A stretch of 63,999 nucleotides of DNA, the filler included, from Stramenopiles sp. TOSAG23-3 (Eukaryota), in assembly GCA_900128585.1 (NCBI GenBank). It is 3 parts of 3 records of this genome, joined end to end, with 100 filler letters (N's around TTAATTAATTAA, not from the genome) between each part and the next. Parts side by side here need not be neighbours in the genome. Positions count along the whole stretch, not along the records: positions 43,086 to 63,999 come from LT642365.1; 2 more parts are not named here. One strand, written 5' to 3'. Below are positions 8,039 through 58,676 of this stretch, piece by piece. The position numbers and the translations under genes were made by a program. Positions within the stretch are counted from its first letter, which is position 1, and every line of letters begins with the position of its first letter. The notes under the pieces were generated by a model. That model saw only the letters and a list, made by a program, of their open reading frames with translations, was not told the DNA's origin and did no database searches.

Positions 8039-9025
8039 ACTCCGAAGAAAGTATTTTGCGGTCTGTACTAACTCAAATTTCTTTCGATTGGTGCCTAAAA
8101 TTAATAGTAGGATTACAACAGACTTTAAGCTGAAAAAATTGCATGTAGATACTTACACGTCAAACGTTATTGTTGATTTTCCAAGTTTGCACTCTACCAG
8201 ACAACGAAACGACGGTTCAATGTACGAGGAGTTGTTGTTGGTATATTTTTTCAATAGTAAAATAACACTACCGGTACAAAAAACTTTACATTCGAATAGC
8301 AGCTACCACCGGTACCCAGGTCATACCCGTTCCGGTACCGTGCCTGGTACCGGTACCTGTACCGGGTACCGGTACCTACCTGGTTCCGTAGTTCGGCAAG
8401 TGGAACTCACATCAACGAGACCGACCACCGGGCTAATTTGAATAATTTATTAGTCTCTATCTATATTATTAAAACGCCCAAAAATCGATGGATGAAGCAT
8501 GCCAACCGGTTCGTACGTACGACGGTAGTCTACGGTGACAATTCCACTAATAGTCTATTAAATTATAATACTGCTTTTTTATTAGTCTAGTATCATTATT
8601 AATTAGATGCTACAACTCCTAGAACCCGAACCGCAACACAGGACACACAGGTGAACGGATAAATTCATTGTTTGTTGCACGAAAGGTGCTCTTTCTTCCT
8701 ATCCGTATGCTGCATCCAGCAGGGTATTATTAGGGTGTAGCATTCACCAGCAGCACCAAATTAAAATTAAAAAAAAAAATCATGTCCTCGTCCTCGTACG
8801 GTACGGTATGCTCTCTCTGGCATCAGTCAGGAGGTCAGAGCATTACTACTGCCTCATTGTTAAAAAAAAGTCTGCAAATAATTGTCACTGTCCCGGTTTG
8901 CTTTGTTTCGTGTATAACTATAAACAAGTGATTATAACATTATGCACGGGTTTTAAAATCTATTCTGCTCCTAAAACCGCGTATTTCACTTTGCCGTTTT
9001 GCAATTGATTTTGTAAGGGAACAAA

Positions 9026-21459: not shown

Positions 21460-21559
21460 NNNNNNNNNNNNNNNNNNNNNNNNNNNNNNNNNNNNNNNNN
21501 NNNTTAATTAATTAANNNNNNNNNNNNNNNNNNNNNNNNNNNNNNNNNNNNNNNNNNNN
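21460..21559. other. Artificial contig-joining spacer
   Basis: 100-nt block of N with a central TTAATTAATTAA (stops in all six frames). Confidence 0.95.
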
Positions 21560-21868
21560 CTGGTAAACTTGATAATGTTGTACGATCGTTTCCTTTATCT
21601 ACTTTTGGGATAGCCACCACTACTTTCGCCGTTCTACTACAGTAATTAAAACTGACACCTTTTCTTATTCATTCCTTTGGTATCTAAAATAAATACCGTA
21701 AATAAAACACTTATTTTCTTGTGAACGATTAGGAACATTTGAGTTTTAGATCGTTGAAGAAGATAGGTAGGATTTATATAGGTGTATTTTGATCTATAGT
21801 GACGTCGTGGAAAGGTATGCTTTGATATTTGAATTGTTTTTGTTGTTGTGTAAGCACGAAACGGCGAA

Positions 21869-42985: not shown

Positions 42986-43085
42986 NNNNNNNNNNNNNNN
43001 NNNNNNNNNNNNNNNNNNNNNNNNNNNNNTTAATTAATTAANNNNNNNNNNNNNNNNNNNNNNNNNNNNNNNNNNNNNNNNNNNN
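42986..43085. other. Artificial contig-joining spacer
   Basis: Same 100-nt N/TTAATTAATTAA block as at 21460. Confidence 0.95.
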
Positions 43086-43588: not shown

Positions 43589-43972
43589 ATGGAAACAGCA
43601 TCCACCAGCCAACTAATAAAACCAACAAGCACAAGCGAAGATCCGAACTGTGACTGTGGAATGTATGGAGAGTGTACTATCCTCGTAATGTATTATACAC
43701 TCCACATTATAAGAGGGAAGAGGCAGATTAAAATTTTTAACTTTTTTTCGAGAGGCGGCCCGAAGTCGGCGCATGTCAAAAGCAAAAAATATGGCAACCT
43801 TTTGCATTACGTGTGCCGCCAGAAGCCCATTTCGCTTGTTCTGGTGCAAAAGCTGTGCAATGATCCACAGGCAGCGCTGAAAAAGGACAAGAATGGCAAC
43901 CTTCCAATCCATTTTGTGGTGGAGCGAAAGGATTTCAGCCCCTTCATTTTTAATACACTGTATAGGCTGTAG
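43589..43972 (+). pseudogene. Short ankyrin-like ORF, probably a gene fragment
   Basis: GNLLHYVC and KDKNGNLPIHFVV are ankyrin-like. The ORF stops abruptly and is followed by AT-rich low-complexity DNA. Confidence 0.45.
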
Positions 43973-44644: not shown

Positions 44645-46316
44645 ATGGCTAACACGGCGGGTCCTGACCTGAAGGGTGACGGGGCCAGAAAAGTAAGGAG
44701 AAAAAGTGTGCCTATGAGGAGACGAATGACCACGGAGCAAAGAGTTGGTCGCGAGGGGGTGCAACACAGGGGCAAATACGGTAGAATAGTGTGTGCGGTT
44801 TTCATAAGCCTCTCAGTTTTCACCACGATAGTCGGTAAAGCACTAGGAACGTTCGACAATCCAGAATTGAACGAAGCACAGTATTATGTGTTCAACGTAC
44901 TCACAAATATATTCTTGGCAGGTAACTCGCTGGGTATCTGCATCATTTCCCACAAAAATATCTCAAAGACCGTTTTGAAGCGTGTGTACAAAGATTTTAA
45001 TGTGATACTTATCGTTGCCTTAAGTATTACCAACTTTGTTATAGAGTGCGCCCGGCCAAGTTCGCAGCTTAGCCCAGTGTTTTCATTCAATTTTATTTTG
45101 CTGGTTATATCTGTCTTTTCATTCGACGCAGTTGAGAAAAAAACTCGAAACTTTACGCTGCTATTAAATTTCATGTTTTTAGCTTTTGTCGTCATTGGGC
45201 TGTATGACTTGGCGATTGGAGTGCTAGATGTAAAGACGGTGTTGGTAGACTTTGGCTACGGCAGAGTTTTCTACAAACGATCTGTCAAGAGAGCAATATA
45301 CGTCGAAATATTTTTCCTGCTGGCCGATGGAATGAATGTCCTGATTAAAGATAGTAAGATGGAACTGCTAATGTTCGCCAGTGGACCAGTTTATAAAGAC
45401 TCGGAAAGGATATCTCAGAGCGTACCAGATTCAAACCTTAGAAAAAAGCCCAAACTAAGATTCCAAGTGTTTGCGTTTATGGGATGTGTGGTGGTTAGTG
45501 CTATAGTCCATATCGTCCACGCGTCTGTAGGCCGAACAGTGCCAGGTAAGTTCATTTTTATTTCTTGTTATAACCCGCCATCTCCGCCGCTAACGTTTTT
45601 GTTTTCTTCTTTGTTCAGGGCTTCGGATCGCTGTGGCAGTCTCTTACATCGCGACTATGGCTGCCTTTGGAAGCATATGCTGGAATAATGTTTCTGTCCA
45701 TGATTTCAAAAACATCATGAAAGAAAGTAAGATTGTTATCGTCTTTTTTCTTGGAATTGCAAACTTTATCCTGGACTTGCTGGCATCGAATAATGTTGAG
45801 ACACATTTTGAGGGGTTTCTTTATCTTGCAGCTGTCACTACACTCTTGCTACTGGACGTTATCCAAACGAAAACCAAACCAATGATGATTTTTATCGCGG
45901 CATATGTCTGCGTTAGCACCCTTTATCTGATTTATCAAACCACTTTAGGAATTTCGTACGTCGGCATTGTTTTTTACGATGCGGGAGAAAACCGGGTCTT
46001 TTACTTGCGCGGAATTAAGCGCGCGATATTTATCGATATTCTGACGTTGTCTTTGACAGGTTTGTTGACATGGTTTATGGATCCAGACTTTGAGCACTAT
46101 CTGTTTGTCCGGTCCCACATCTTTCGTGAATCAGGACAAAGCACGATGACGAGAAGAGATGTCAGTTACATTGAAACGCGTGTGAACGAAAGGCGTGGTA
46201 GAGGATCGCTCATGAGGGGAGTATCCCAGCTGGAATCCGTTGTTGTAAAAAACGAAAGAGAAATGAAAACATTGAAACGATTGTATAGCTTGGACGAAGT
46301 AATATCTAGAGAATAA
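44645..46316 (+). CDS. Polytopic membrane protein with two internally duplicated halves; 2 exons (44645-45545, 45619-46316)
   Basis: The ORFs join in frame across a 73-nt intron. The halves share motifs, e.g. RVFYKRSVKRAIYVEI and RVFYLRGIKRAIFIDI. Confidence 0.8.
45546..45618 (+). other. Spliceosomal intron (73 nt)
   Basis: GTAAGT...GCTAAC, pyrimidine tract, TTCAG. Removal gives TVPG-LRIAVAV in frame. Confidence 0.92.
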
Positions 46317-52393: not shown

Positions 52394-54538
52394 ATGTTGT
52401 CAAAGTTACAGACGGCTGCGACGGTTTCGACGTTTGGGACCGCCCGCCGTGCATTTACTGCAGCTGCCGCCGGAGGAGAGGACGGGATGTTTAAGAAAAT
52501 ATTGATCGCTAATCGTGGAGAAATTGCATGCCGTGTGATAGAAAGTGCAAAGAGAATGGGCATACAGACGGTTGCGCTGTATAGCGACATTGACCAAAAT
52601 TCCAAGCATGTCTCGTTGGCGGACGAAGCGTACTACGTTGGACCCAACCCAGCCAGTGAGTCGTACTTGCTCGGGGACAAGATTCTAGAGATTTGCAAGC
52701 AATCTGGCGCGGAGGCAGTCCATCCAGGGTATGGATTTTTGAGCGAAAATGCAGGGTTCAGTGAGGCCTGCGCTAGCAATGGGATAAAATTCATCGGCCC
52801 CCCTGCCAGTGCCATCGTCGATATGGGCAGCAAGAGCGCGTCGAAGGATATTATGATTGCCGCCGGCGTGCCGGTCACCCCGGGCTACCACGGCGAGGCC
52901 CAGGATCTCGAAACCCTGAAATCGGAGGCCCGAAAAATGGGATACCCGGTCATGATTAAGGCGGTTCTGGGGGGGGGTGGAAAAGGCATGCGCGTAGCCT
53001 TGACTGAGGACGTCTTCGAGGAGAACCTGGACGGTGCACGGCGCGAGGCCATGAAGTCGTTTGCGGACGACCGCGTGTTGATCGAACGTTTCTTGGTAAA
53101 GCCCAGGCACGTTGAGCTGCAAGTCTTTGCCGACGAACATGGAAACTGCGTTCACCTTTACGAACGGGATTGCAGCGTTCAGCGAAGGCACCAAAAGGTT
53201 TTGGAAGAAGCCCCCGCACCCGGGATGACAAAAGAGCTGCGCGATCGTATGGGCACTGCCGCGGTCAACGCTGCGAAGGCGGTCGGCTATGAAGGGGCGG
53301 GAACCGTTGAGTTCATGCTGGATGACGATGGAGAAAGCTTCTACTTCATGGAAATGAACACTCGCTTGCAGGTCGAACACCCTGTGACGGAGATGGTCAC
53401 TGGGGTCGACTTGGTCGATTGGCAGCTGCGCATCGCAGCAGGCCACCCCCTGCCAATGTCCCAAGACGAAATCCCCCTCACCGGGCATGCCATCGAAGCA
53501 AGAGTGTATGCTGAAAACCCCGAAAACGAATTCCTGCCAGCCAGTGGTCCGGTGGCGTTCATGGATTTGCCAGACCACGTGTCGTTTAAGAACGGGGACA
53601 TTCGAATCGATTCTGGGGTACGCGAAGGCGACGATGTTTCCATATTTTATGACCCAATGATTTCCAAACTGATCGTCAAGGGTAATGACCGGGACGAGGC
53701 GTTGCGACTCCTCGACCAGGCGCTTAAAAACTACCGTGTTGTTGGCCTGCCAACGAACATCGAATTCTTGAGGAAAACGGCATCTCACCGGGCCTTTCGG
53801 GAGGCGGAGCTAGACACGAACTTTATCGAGAAGAACTACGACGAACTGCTCCCAGTCGCCCAGCCGACCCCAGACCGTGTTCTTGTTTTGGCTGCCCTTG
53901 CCCGGTTGCTTGAAGAAGCCGAAAGCCTGAGCTCCAACGCGTCGCCGTGGGGCAACGTAGCCGGTGCAGGTGCAAGGTTCACGGGGGAAGGCGGACGAGT
54001 GAGAACGTTAAACTTCACGGGAAACAACGGTAGTGAAGACCTTTCGGTTGCGGTAAAGTATTTTCCCGGGAGTGACGGGGATGAGGTCAAGTTTTCGGCC
54101 GATGTTGGTGGAGAAAGCGACGTTGTCGTCCGGGGACGGCTCGTAGGCAAGTCAAAGATCCTTGCATTCTTTGGGAAAGAACGCGTCACTGCAACTGTCA
54201 ACCGGCACGGGGATACGTTCTCTGTTTTTTGTGACCAAGGTGATTTCAAGCACGTTTATAACGTCGATGTGGCGCCCCTTGACTTGGGCGATGACTCGGG
54301 CGCAAAAGGGAAGTTGAACGTTTTGACACCAATGCCTGGCACGGTCATTAAAGTCATGGTTGGCAAGGGGGACTCGGTGGCGAAAGGTGAGCCTATGATG
54401 ATTTTGACTGCAATGAAAATGGAGCATATTATACGAGCCCAAGCTGATGGGACGATTGCAAGCGTTGGTTACGGGGAAGGGGACTTTGTCGAAGATGGCA
54501 AAGTTCTCATCTCATTTGTTGATGAAGACGAGGAGTAG
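52394..54538 (+). CDS. MCCC1: 3-methylcrotonyl-CoA carboxylase alpha subunit, mitochondrial
   Basis: KILIANRGEIACRV, HPGYGFLSENA, MGSKSASKDIM..AGVP..GYHG (MCC-like), ERDCSVQRRHQK, EMNTRLQVEHPVTE, biotin site AMKME. Presequence MLSKLQ...RRAFT. Confidence 0.88.
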   Translation: MLSKLQTAATVSTFGTARRAFTAAAAGGEDGMFKKILIANRGEIACRVIESAKRMGIQTVALYSDIDQNSKHVSLADEAYYVGPNPASESYLLGDKILEICKQSGAEAVHPGYGFLSENAGFSEACASNGIKFIGPPASAIVDMGSKSASKDIMIAAGVPVTPGYHGEAQDLETLKSEARKMGYPVMIKAVLGGGGKGMRVALTEDVFEENLDGARREAMKSFADDRVLIERFLVKPRHVELQVFADEHGNCVHLYERDCSVQRRHQKVLEEAPAPGMTKELRDRMGTAAVNAAKAVGYEGAGTVEFMLDDDGESFYFMEMNTRLQVEHPVTEMVTGVDLVDWQLRIAAGHPLPMSQDEIPLTGHAIEARVYAENPENEFLPASGPVAFMDLPDHVSFKNGDIRIDSGVREGDDVSIFYDPMISKLIVKGNDRDEALRLLDQALKNYRVVGLPTNIEFLRKTASHRAFREAELDTNFIEKNYDELLPVAQPTPDRVLVLAALARLLEEAESLSSNASPWGNVAGAGARFTGEGGRVRTLNFTGNNGSEDLSVAVKYFPGSDGDEVKFSADVGGESDVVVRGRLVGKSKILAFFGKERVTATVNRHGDTFSVFCDQGDFKHVYNVDVAPLDLGDDSGAKGKLNVLTPMPGTVIKVMVGKGDSVAKGEPMMILTAMKMEHIIRAQADGTIASVGYGEGDFVEDGKVLISFVDEDEE

Positions 54539-54690
54539 GCGTAGACCAACAAAATGAAACACTGCGCTAAGGACAACTTCAGTTGTAAGTATTGTATGAC
54601 GGTACGTAATGTTCTTTTTTTAATACCATATGTGTGTTGATTACCGAGAGGGAAATATAACATATTTACGCGCGTTCAATATGAATTATT

Positions 54691-54951
54691 GACCTGTGTT
54701 GCCCTTGCTGCTGTGTAGCCCGTCTCGAACAAGGGCAAAGTGGCGCCGGCAGCGAAACGTTTCGGTCCGGTGCCACTCTTCCCAGTGAATGAAGGTTGGT
54801 TCTGTGGCAAGAGTCAATGGTCACGCCACGGGAAGAGAATGCAGGGGGGGCACGAGCATGCGCGTTTTCGATTTATATATTTTTGTACCCCCGCATTTTA
54901 CATTTGGAGGCTGTGGGTGCACTGCACGGCAACAGCGTCAGAATACAGGGT
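54691..54951 (+). ncRNA. Putative structured RNA element (five hairpins closed by a terminal stem), family unknown
   Basis: Consecutive inverted repeats found by eye. The G-U pairs favour the + strand. GC-rich island with no convincing ORF. Confidence 0.5.
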
Positions 54952-55014
54952 GTAGTACAAACACGAATTTTCATATAAAATAATCATTAGGATAGCAATA
55001 AAAAGATTATAGAC

Positions 55015-55290
55015 TAGAGCTCCACTTGCGAGACAACCTCAGTTGCCTCTCAGGGGCGCTACAATACTTGCTTTTGCAGTCAGCAAAGTTCTTCTCTCAA
55101 ACGCAATCACAAACACTTCTGGGATTCTGTGCGGAGGCTCATAAAAAAAGTTGCTAGGGAATTATTTCCCAAACAACACCGCCACACCCAAGCCGTTGAA
55201 GTAATTTGAAGCGACTTCAGTAAAAATATTCGACCACCAATTGTTTCCATTCTCTTGCGGTCGAACGGCAAAGACATGCAAAGCAAGTAT
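55015..55290 (-). ncRNA. Putative structured RNA element downstream of RPS27, family unknown
   Basis: A long-range stem 55064-55078/55277-55290 encloses nested hairpins, and a separate hairpin lies at 55015-55061. G-U pairs favour the - strand. Confidence 0.45.
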
Positions 55291-55405
55291 GCGCATAACT
55301 GTTTCTTCTTACACGAATCAATGATTATAATGGATTCCATCGCCCTTGAGGACCATCATTTATATAACAACTCCCCTAAAAATCTATATATACGCAAATA
55401 TACAT

Positions 55406-55657
55406 TTAGTCGTACTTCTTACGGAAGGAGCAACCTTCAGTGAGTTTAGATTTACCACCCGTTGGCTGGGCGATCAAGATGGAGCAACTAGAGCAGAAAA
55501 CCGTGGCATGAACGTGGGAGAAGACTGTTTGGATGTTGTAGCAACCTGGGCACTTAACGTCCATAAAGTAACTGTTTGGTCCTTGCACTAATCTCTTAAG
55601 CTTGTGCTTTTTGGCCTCGTCGGCCTTCGATGGGAATAGCATATCAGTAACTGGCAT
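55406..55657 (-). CDS. RPS27: 40S ribosomal protein eS27 (S27)
   Basis: [23 protein letters not shown]...VFSH...CSSC...[17 protein letters not shown]. Confidence 0.96.
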
Positions 55658-57176: not shown

Positions 57177-58676
57177 ATGCGTACTGCAGTCGCAAGAATT
57201 TTCGCGTTTCAAAACTCTAGAATTGGAGCACCTTCGGTTCGAACTGCGAATAGGGTCCTTATGTCAACCGTTAGTGTTATTGGTACTCAGCTCGAATGTG
57301 CTGGGTGTGGACATATAGAGGATGGGCTCGCGAATATTTTGTTTAAATGCCCGAATAGCGAGAGCAGCCCTGAGTGCGACCACGTGTTGGCACCCAAAAC
57401 CCCTGGAAAGGACTGTACTGCAACTTTGCAGAACGGGTGCACGTTCCCTGCAGAGGAGATCAACGAAATACCCTTCCTGCGGTACCGTGCTTTGCTATAC
57501 CCTTACCGCATTGCAATCGCAAAGGGGATGTCGGATGAAGTGTACGTGAACATTATCCAGGACTTGAACAACGAGCTAGTCGCCGTTGGTGGCACCGGCT
57601 TTACCGAAACGCCGCTGCTGTGGAACAACGAGCTGAACAGTTTCGTAAAAAATGAGACTCTCAATGTGGCCCAGTCCCACAAAGCCCGTCACCTGTTTAA
57701 CCTGATGTCCTATTTGCTTGTCATGTCTTATGGGGAACAGGGTGTGGGGGGCGGGTTGCGCAATAGACGGTTGGCCGTAGCCAGCTGTGGCAATGCTGGC
57801 TTGGCGGCGGCGACCGTTGCCGCCGCTGCAAAATGGCCCATTGACGTTTGCATCCCCCCAGATGCCGAGCCCGCCGTCGTTGAACAGCTCCATCATTTGG
57901 GAGCTAGCGTGCACATTTGTCGCCGTGATGCAGATTTTGTCGAGACTAGCCTTGGCAAAATATCGTCAAAGGGCGAGGCCGACCCCACGCTTGCAGTATT
58001 TAAGAATTTAGTAAAAGACCATGGAAGCATCCCTTTCAGTGTCCAAGGCTCCGAATGTGGGTTAGGGGTCGAGGGATCCCAGACAATTGCATGGGAGGTG
58101 CTGGAAGCAATGCAGCGGGACTTTCATGATTCCAAGTCGCCCGTGGAAAACTCTACGATAGAGAACGTTTTCATCCAAGTGGGCGGGGGGGCTCTGGGCT
58201 CTGGGATGATTCAGGGGTTCCAGCGTGCGTTGGATGGGGAGCTAGAACAAGTGAATCCCACCCTTGGGTCGAATGTAATCAGGTCGTTGCCGAAACTCTT
58301 TTGTATTCAGCCGGTAGGGTGCGGGCCGTTGAAGCGAGCACTTGACGAAATGAAAAAGAACGACATTACCAACGGCAAAACGGCAGCAAAAGACAGGGCA
58401 ACGTACATGTACCCCTGGGAAAATCCTCACTCCATAGCGCATGGTATTTTGGACGATGAAACCTACGATTGGTTGTCCTTGGTGGACGGAATGATTTCGA
58501 CGGAGGGGGGGGCTTTGCTTGTGGACGATGACAGTATTTGTGAGGCAAAGAAATTCGCTGAGGAACAGTTCGGTTTGAACCCTTGCCATACTGGTTCGGC
58601 TGGGTTGGCGGGTTTGATGAAGAACCGAAAGGAGGGGGTCAGTTTGGTAGTATTAAGTGGCCTTGATCGATCGTAA
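57177..58676 (+). CDS. Threonine-synthase-like PLP-dependent enzyme (fold type II) with presequence
   Basis: N-terminal CAGC...CPN...DH putative Zn site; TPLLW; PLP-lysine motif KNETLNVAQSHKARH; ASCGNAG; QVGGGALGSG; GSAGLAG; VLSG. The ATG at 57177 starts an Arg/Ser/Ala-rich leader with no acidic residues. Confidence 0.8.
   Translation: MRTAVARIFAFQNSRIGAPSVRTANRVLMSTVSVIGTQLECAGCGHIEDGLANILFKCPNSESSPECDHVLAPKTPGKDCTATLQNGCTFPAEEINEIPFLRYRALLYPYRIAIAKGMSDEVYVNIIQDLNNELVAVGGTGFTETPLLWNNELNSFVKNETLNVAQSHKARHLFNLMSYLLVMSYGEQGVGGGLRNRRLAVASCGNAGLAAATVAAAAKWPIDVCIPPDAEPAVVEQLHHLGASVHICRRDADFVETSLGKISSKGEADPTLAVFKNLVKDHGSIPFSVQGSECGLGVEGSQTIAWEVLEAMQRDFHDSKSPVENSTIENVFIQVGGGALGSGMIQGFQRALDGELEQVNPTLGSNVIRSLPKLFCIQPVGCGPLKRALDEMKKNDITNGKTAAKDRATYMYPWENPHSIAHGILDDETYDWLSLVDGMISTEGGALLVDDDSICEAKKFAEEQFGLNPCHTGSAGLAGLMKNRKEGVSLVVLSGLDRS

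Follow-up and report, generated by a model that had tools for sequence, protein, structure and literature searches.

A stretch of 261 nt between two convergent genes of Stramenopiles sp. TOSAG23-3 (assembly GCA_900128585.1) folds into five hairpins under a closing helix. The question that it raises is whether it is a gene for an RNA, serves one of its neighbors, or merely records where it came from. The original prediction took it for a novel noncoding RNA or a regulatory element in the 3'UTR of MCCC1. Our answer is a tentative one, held at less than even odds. We propose that this hairpin island encodes a small, structured, non-polyadenylated RNA, as an orphan gene restricted to its lineage and possibly with an H/ACA-like module, and we weigh against that reading an insertion, a termination barrier, an element of a 3'UTR and chance.

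Setting of the island

The window, by which we mean the whole stretch of DNA that was analysed (63,999 nt), is eukaryotic in sequence, compact and mostly without introns. It appears to be a stitched draft assembly, and runs of N with TTAATTAATTAA in mid-run at 21460-21560 and 42986-43085 resemble artificial six-frame-stop linkers between contigs. The gene to the left of the island, MCCC1, encodes the alpha subunit of 3-methylcrotonyl-CoA carboxylase. Its product is ~53-55% identical to its closest named relatives, which are oomycete proteins, and 73-80% identical to environmental relatives; those at the 80% level bear the name 3-methylcrotonyl-CoA carboxylase alpha subunit and contain biotin-carboxylase and biotinyl Pfam domains. 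The gene to the right, RPS27, encodes ribosomal protein S27 (eS27). The two converge, and the island lies inside the 867-nt spacer that separates their stop codons, on the 3' side of the MCCC1 stop codon (54538), so that it was correctly described as downstream of MCCC1. By subtraction of ORF coordinates, this spacer is the longest of the 10 convergent spacers in the window, the other nine measuring 71-513 nt.

The locus has been sampled widely. The interval 54300-55500 is present in DNA and RNA runs from many marine studies, and 0.92-0.95 of its sampled words were found in the DNA runs of three studies. As the island makes up 22% of this interval, we infer from the word presence that it is not peculiar to this one assembly and cannot be an artefact of it. 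The features discussed below are collected in Table 1.

Table 1. Positions of genes, transcripts, hairpins and candidate signals around the island (window coordinates, except for the relatives)
Feature	Position	Strand	Description
MCCC1 (3-methylcrotonyl-CoA carboxylase alpha)	52394-54538	+	Single 714-aa ORF
MCCC1 3'UTR per RNA contigs	54539-54645	+	Contigs reach 54600 (X11, X16, X17) or 54645 (X19)
TATA-like hexamer	54656-54661	+	~35 nt upstream of first paired base
GC-rich island	54691-54951		Five hairpins and closing helix; fold and composition
Closing helix	54693-54700 / 54942-54949		8 bp, MFE fold
HP1	54699-54738		Lower stem 54699-54707 / 54730-54738, perfect 9 bp, plus small inner helix
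HP2	54739-54777		39-nt near-perfect palindrome; 54739-54749 / 54767-54777, 11 bp, one G.U
HP3	54776-54837		8-bp lower stem, partly self-paired internal loop, 9-bp upper stem with 3 G.U on +
HP3 helices	54778-54783 / 54830-54835; inner 54795-54803 / 54810-54818		MFE fold
H-box-like AGAGAA	54834-54839	+	Fits ANANNA; 15 nt after HP3 upper stem
HP4	54836-54899		12-bp lower stem 54836-54848 / 54888-54899, one bulge, large AU-rich loop
T runs of 4-5	54865-54868, 54880-54884, 54896-54899	+	Inside HP4
ACA triplet	54900-54902	+	Directly after HP4
HP5	54907-54939		Small 5+4-bp hairpin: 54910-54914 / 54932-54936, 54917-54920 / 54924-54927
Sole RNA-library contig on island	54769-54972	Unstranded	Run X11, 206 nt, depth 2.5
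RPS27 3'UTR	54968-55405	-	~430 nt; poly(A) site 54968-54976
RPS27 (ribosomal protein S27, eS27)	55406-55657	-	83-aa ORF; Pfam PF01667, E 4.2e-26
Convergent MCCC1(+)/RPS27(-) pair in relatives	L001 413-3747; L002 392-3421; L003 1563-4779		Pair kept

Fold, composition and strand

Every stem listed in the original prediction is present in the sequence and in the minimum free energy (MFE) fold. The pairing is real, and only the accompanying remark that nearly every base lies in a hairpin went too far, as the 90 pairs take up 180 of the 261 bases (69%). The comparison with dinucleotide shuffles for which the prediction called came out in the island's favor on both strands: its MFE is -107.4 kcal/mol as + strand RNA (z -3.30) and -90.4 kcal/mol as - strand RNA (z -2.95), and folding with DNA parameters gives z -3.69, with 0 of 200 shuffles as good in each of the three cases. 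We also scanned the entire window in 260-nt windows at 65-nt steps, with energy regressed on GC. The best three + strand windows all overlap the island (z -3.6, -3.58 and -3.04), and on the - strand it falls outside the best 15. A fold z near -3.3 is borderline once the number of windows is counted, the island being the best of ~64 kb.

The hairpins contribute unequally. Two of the five stand out when folded individually, namely HP2, the strongest (-26.1 kcal/mol; z -5.00 on + and -3.70 on -), and HP3 (z -3.26 on + and, via a different fold, -3.40 on -). The other three have z of -1.7 to -2.1 on the + strand: HP1 (-2.03 on +, -2.55 on -), HP4 (-1.73 on +, -1.93 on -) and HP5 (-2.10 on +, -0.83 on -). 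HP4 has no convincing upper stem, its inner pairs having probabilities of 0.33-0.67. The five are mutually unrelated and share no repeated module.

Composition singles out the same segment. Four non-ORF islands of at least 0.50 GC per 150 nt occur in the 17.8 kb outside long ORFs, and the hairpin island, at 0.60, has the highest GC among them, 3.4 sd above the non-ORF mean of 0.324 (sd 0.081).

Several other places in the window are strongly structured or GC-rich in their own right. Hairpin energies over 64 nt are as strong or stronger at 8293-8412 and, within a CDS, at 57741-57868. The former belongs to a divergent spacer and is a palindromic repeat of the CCGGTACC type, with no sequence relationship to the hairpin island; no other 64-nt hairpins in the window have energies as strong (-37.4 and -39.3 kcal/mol on the two strands), and a 201-nt fold has z -3.0. 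The latter, where strong local hairpins are clustered (-36.9 on +, -33.5 on -), lies within a 499-aa ORF at 57177-58676. A further non-ORF GC island (0.507) at 43751-43900, near a contig join and upstream of an ORF at 44645, may be an unannotated short exon or gene.

These surroundings bear on the explanation by chance, in which an ordinary spacer segment happens to be GC-rich and self-complementary and was picked out as the most extreme in 64 kb. Chance would accommodate a z of about -3.3, borderline when windows numbering roughly in the hundreds are scanned on two strands, as well as the unremarkable scores of three of the five hairpins taken singly and the equal or stronger local hairpins that exist elsewhere, one of them inside a CDS. 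Chance fits less well with the same 260 nt being the top outlier for both non-ORF GC and folding, or with the z of -5.0 reached by HP2 alone, and we consider it quite improbable.

The original prediction had further argued that imperfect positions of the G-U type point to selection on + strand RNA. The count behind this argument is borne out, with 11 G.U among 90 pairs on the + strand versus 4 among 76 on the -, but the strand inference is not. A fold restricted to Watson-Crick pairs, which treats the strands alike (-93.0 kcal/mol), leaves 4 transition mismatches of the G.U type and 2 of the A.C type, and on this strand-neutral count the claim of selection fails. The z against its own shuffles is alike on the two strands, both for the full 261 nt and for the 148-nt block of HP1-HP3 (-3.22 on +, -3.38 on -), and the + strand is G+T rich (A54 C62 G82 T63). 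We ruled out G.U pairs as evidence of strand on the basis of the equal z, the z under DNA parameters and the 4:2 split of mismatches. Taken together, the equal z, the mismatch split and the base composition of the + strand mean that the strand cannot be called from sequence. The palindrome of HP2, moreover, continues across its centre, a feature seen more typically in inverted repeats at the DNA level than in RNA loops under selection.

Transcripts and syntenic relatives

Our RNA evidence consists of contigs from four metatranscriptome runs (X11, X16, X17 and X19), belonging to four studies, placed on 54100-55600. The MCCC1 contigs end 46-91 nt before the island with no loose ends, a weak hint that these ends mark the end of the mRNA. 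On the other side, the RPS27 contigs start at 54968 (X16), 54976 (X17), 54975 (X11) and 54987 (X19), and two of them are preceded by loose ends, T19 at 54968 in X16, a PolyA library, and T8 at 54976 in X17. These T runs are the poly(A) tails of the - strand RPS27 mRNA, whose poly(A) site is thus 17-25 nt beyond the island's other side. The gap between the 3' ends of the two mRNAs is about 320-370 nt, and the island is inside it. Given the poly(A) tails and the MCCC1 contig ends, the island is probably in neither 3'UTR; it is probably outside both mature mRNAs, being apparently outside that of MCCC1.

The part of the original prediction that envisaged a regulatory element in the 3'UTR fares poorly in this light. 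A cis-regulatory 3'UTR element of MCCC1 or of RPS27 would have to lie downstream of the stop codon, as the island does for both genes, and the X19 MCCC1 contig, 45 nt longer than the others, suggests that longer isoforms may exist. Yet the tails at 54968 and 54976 put the island outside the RPS27 mRNA, and the MCCC1 contigs of all four runs end at 54600 or 54645, before 54691, which hints weakly at the same for MCCC1. We regard such an element as extremely unlikely.

Two further observations concern these mRNAs. The MCCC1 contigs of all four runs carry G where the window has A at 54317, and the window base may be strain-specific or erroneous. The RPS27 3'UTR, as delimited by the poly(A)-tailed contigs, is unusually long. 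It has a moderate degree of structure on the - strand, where the GC-adjusted z falls as low as -2.9, and no conserved ORF was found within it.

Only one contig, from X11, lies on the island. None of the four runs has a contig over 54646-54768, and three have none over 54646-54967, to which we give no weight as evidence, since contig building, filters and library type can each leave a segment bare. It begins inside the HP2 stem, 7 nt upstream of HP3, covers HP3-HP5 and ends beside the RPS27 poly(A) site, 21 nt past the island, and is therefore a poor match to a 261-nt RNA ending at 54951. Two variants distinguish it from the window, A>G at 54875, in a loop, and C>T at 54892, which in a stem turns G-C into G-U on the + strand; at a depth of 2.5 both could be errors. 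Their density, 2 in 204 nt, is no lower than that of the flanking mRNA contigs (0-2 in 413-633 nt). The contig could be read-through from RPS27, DNA carry-over, or part of a + strand precursor.

Read-through is central to another explanation, in which the island acts as a two-way hairpin barrier in the termination zone of both convergent genes. The hairpins would stall Pol II or be cut by an RNase III-type enzyme, a 5'-3' exonuclease would enter, and collision and antisense RNA would be prevented. Termination in fission yeast is triggered when Pac1, directed by stem-loops, cleaves the RNA (PMC8421224). The position of the island suits such a role, since it occupies the interval from the RPS27 poly(A) site to the MCCC1 contig ends, and so does its folding on either strand, which a two-way element requires. 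The X11 contig, moreover, spans from the RPS27 poly(A) site to 54769, within the stem of the strongest hairpin. That end, however, is the end of a single unstranded contig of depth 2.5, and cleavage, pausing and RNase III dependence of the island are hypothetical, drawn by analogy. The same gene pair does without such an island in 3 of 3 relatives, and the other 9 convergent spacers of the window have no island of at least 0.50 GC. A barrier of this kind therefore seems to us unlikely.

The relatives come from a metagenome scan with the MCCC1 C-terminus, which returned 76 loci, three of them syntenic eukaryote relatives (L001, L002 and L003). Their MCCC1 C-terminal halves are 56-69% identical to that of the window, and L001, the closest, is the species of the 80%-identical MCCC1 protein (80% overall). 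The spacers between MCCC1 and RPS27 measure 899, 606 and 787 nt in L001, L002 and L003 and have fully diverged from that of the window; at this distance UTRs and spacers are saturated. Searching the whole spacer (54539-55405) against all 76 loci with blastn and nhmmer returned nothing in the three relatives. Alignment of their spacers with MAFFT revealed no similarity, and the longest common substring was no longer than in shuffles. A GC-adjusted fold scan found no outlying + strand fold in any of the three spacers, that of L002 being uniformly AT-rich, and a covariance model (CM) of HP1-HP3 had no match. The homologue in related genomes that the original prediction would have looked for thus has, at this locus, a counterpart in 0 of 3 syntenic relatives.

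Copies and repeats were sought more widely. Within the 64-kb window, blastn at word size 7 with 54601-55050 returned the region itself and the palindrome of HP2, and the HP1-HP3 CM with filters off returned the island and its own reverse strand; neither gave a second copy, and none occurs at the three environmental loci. Plasmids, phages and viral contigs yielded no matches to the island, and prokaryote genome contigs none to the exact pattern of HP2. By eye, no terminal inverted repeat with a target-site duplication was seen besides the 8-bp closing helix.

Such findings cut both ways for the idea that the island is a lineage-specific insertion or remnant without selected function, its hairpins reflecting origin and not present use. 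It might be a low-copy fragment of palindromic or mobile DNA, or a retro-copy of a structured RNA such as an rDNA spacer. An insertion would account for the absence of the island from this spacer in all three syntenic relatives, for its folding equally well on both strands and with DNA parameters, and for the palindrome through the centre of HP2. Another GC-rich palindromic stretch in the window, that at 8293-8412, is plainly a repeat, and the variant density of the X11 contig, in which errors are possible at its depth, is not below that of the flanking mRNA contigs. Counting against an insertion are the single copy in 64 kb, the lack of terminal inverted repeats with a target-site duplication beyond the closing helix, the absence of matches in plasmids, phages, viral contigs and prokaryote genome contigs, and the fact that the five hairpins are unrelated to one another. 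No neutral process is known to us that would give rise to five different hairpins abutting one another. On balance we hold an insertion or remnant to be a close rival, only slightly less probable than the RNA gene.

A candidate RNA gene and its likeness to known systems

Known families do not claim the island, as the original prediction had anticipated. Rfam 15 gave 0 matches at the gathering score over the whole window, and at E<=10 over 3 kb and 361 nt only chance-level hits to HIV-1_SL4, mir-239 and Xist_exon1 (12.8-16.7 bits, far below thresholds). ARAGORN found no tRNA, and inspection by eye for C/D boxes, a telomere template, RNase P/MRP, SRP and U1-like features gave no convincing fit. 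Nor does the island appear to encode protein: six small ORFs spanning it matched 0 Pfam families at E<=1, and tblastx against the spacers of the relatives gave nothing below E 0.08. The window, L001 and L003 have ORFs of 77-78 aa on the - strand, and a coding reading through these was rejected, as they are not conserved (24% identity). A search of the literature on noncoding RNA of marine stramenopiles gave unrelated papers only.

We therefore return to the orphan RNA gene as the reading that we tentatively prefer. It would be read probably from the + strand and lodged where the convergent MCCC1 and RPS27 mRNAs leave a gap between them, as a transcription unit of its own whose strand, ends and any function we infer. 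In compact genomes, a GC-rich and structured island within an AT-rich spacer is the classic signature of an RNA gene, and here the top GC island coincides with the best + strand fold of the window. Five hairpins without a shared module or a second copy in 64 kb point to one folded RNA rather than a repeat array. The island is outside the RPS27 mRNA and apparently outside that of MCCC1, and the exceptional length of the spacer (867 versus 71-513 nt) fits an extra unit lodged there. The X11 contig over HP3-HP5 is consistent with transcription, its variants being one change in a loop and one C>T by which a pair is retained as G.U on the + strand, and the presence of most sampled words of the locus in the DNA runs of three studies argues that the island is no assembly artefact.

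Other findings weigh against an RNA gene. No Rfam family matches, and the corresponding spacer of the three syntenic relatives lacks any similar sequence, any k-mers shared above the level of shuffles, any + strand structure and any CM match. The strand is left unfixed by the equal z on the two strands, the z of -3.69 for DNA and the 4:2 mismatches, the folding z is borderline given the number of windows scanned, and the palindrome of HP2 through its loop is typical of DNA-level inverted repeats. The X11 contig misfits a 261-nt RNA and has the extent that read-through or DNA carry-over would give, at a depth of 2.5.

Signals for transcription are equivocal. The TATA-like hexamer upstream of the island is suggestive only, such hexamers being common in the AT-rich spacer. 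An 11-mer at 54733-54743, overlapping the 5' arm of HP2, agrees at 10 of 11 positions with the A-box consensus, and the best B-box-like site in the island is poor. The three T runs inside HP4 speak against transcription of the entire structure by Pol III. A Pol III type-2 gene or tRNA-derived SINE was considered and rejected, given the poor B box, these internal runs of T4-5 and the lack of an ARAGORN tRNA.

A more specific possibility arises from the middle of the island, where HP3, AGAGAA, HP4 and ACA (54776-54905) may form the outline of an H/ACA-type guide RNA, in which case the remaining hairpins would be extra domains or processing signals. H/ACA RNAs consist of two hairpins with an ANANNA hinge between them and ACA after the second, each hairpin having a lower stem, a pocket and an upper stem, with 14-16 nt from the top of the pocket to the box. 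In such RNAs the ACA stands 3 nt before the mature 3' end, and the pocket pairs in two parts with rRNA or snRNA on either side of a target U. The layout of hairpin, AGAGAA, hairpin and ACA agrees with the pattern and adds to the case for an RNA gene. From the HP3 upper stem to the H-like box there are 15 nt (54819-54833); in HP4 the upper stem is too ill-defined for this distance to be taken. The X11 contig starts 7 nt upstream of HP3.

The details are less favorable to a genuine pseudouridylation guide. The internal loop of HP3 pairs with itself over 3+3 bp (GUG/CAC and UGA/UCA; P 0.79-0.90), and HP4, besides lacking a credible upper stem, has a lower stem that leaves ~3 nt for the 3' guide, so that neither hairpin offers the open pocket of H/ACA guide hairpins, the one having a self-paired loop and the other weak inner pairs. 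The chance of the box pattern among four adjacent hairpin pairs is ~0.04 on a rough estimate, and no Rfam H/ACA family matches. Two scans for eukaryote rDNA by primer motif found none, and a target search with E. coli 16S/23S rRNA as a stand-in for the organism's own came up empty, its best match being 7 bp, with 152 of 300 shuffled guides equal or better. These points also count against the RNA gene insofar as it has an H/ACA module. That 54776-54905 is a genuine H/ACA pseudouridylation guide RNA seems to us very doubtful.

The island is at present a well-delimited candidate, not a discovery, and by itself changes nothing. Were it an RNA gene, it would be among the very few noncoding RNAs known from uncultured marine heterotrophic stramenopiles, and scans for GC islands would work in the AT-rich spacers of these organisms. 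Were it instead a barrier to read-through, it would shed light on how convergent genes are kept from interfering with each other in very compact eukaryote genomes, and a two-way terminator would mean that a marine stramenopile with a very compact genome deals with polymerase collision by way of hairpins. The boldest version, that it is either a structured RNA of roughly 200-260 nt, the first member of an undescribed class in uncultured marine stramenopiles, or else a two-way fail-safe terminator, is in our estimate distinctly unlikely.

Comparison with known systems places the island among several partial likenesses. With the GC-rich palindromic repeats of the REP/BIME kind it has in common a GC-rich, hairpin-dense island in an AT-rich spacer between convergent genes, absent from relatives. 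Those repeats, of prokaryotes, organelles and giant viruses, are multi-copy families with recognisable modules, whereas the island is a singleton in 64 kb, with mutually unrelated hairpins and a eukaryote nucleus as its host. Hairpins of Rnt1- or Pac1-dependent termination (PMC8421224) are likewise stable stem-loops just past a poly(A) site, formed in nascent read-through RNA; the known cases are single stem-loops with proven cleavage, whereas the island has five, between convergent genes, and is missing from the same locus in relatives.

H/ACA snoRNAs share with the island two hairpins of ~60 nt, a hinge that fits ANANNA and an ACA, as well as one hairpin with lower stem, internal loop and upper stem. 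They differ in that the second hairpin of the island lacks an upper stem and pocket, its first pocket is partly self-paired, three extra hairpins flank the pair, and neither a target in the E. coli stand-in rRNA nor an Rfam family matches. Lastly, the orphan GC-rich noncoding RNA genes of AT-rich compact eukaryotes have been validated by expression and conservation, whereas the island is known from its sequence and a low-depth contig. Like them, it combines a compositional island with a fold above that of shuffles, in a spacer and outside mRNAs.
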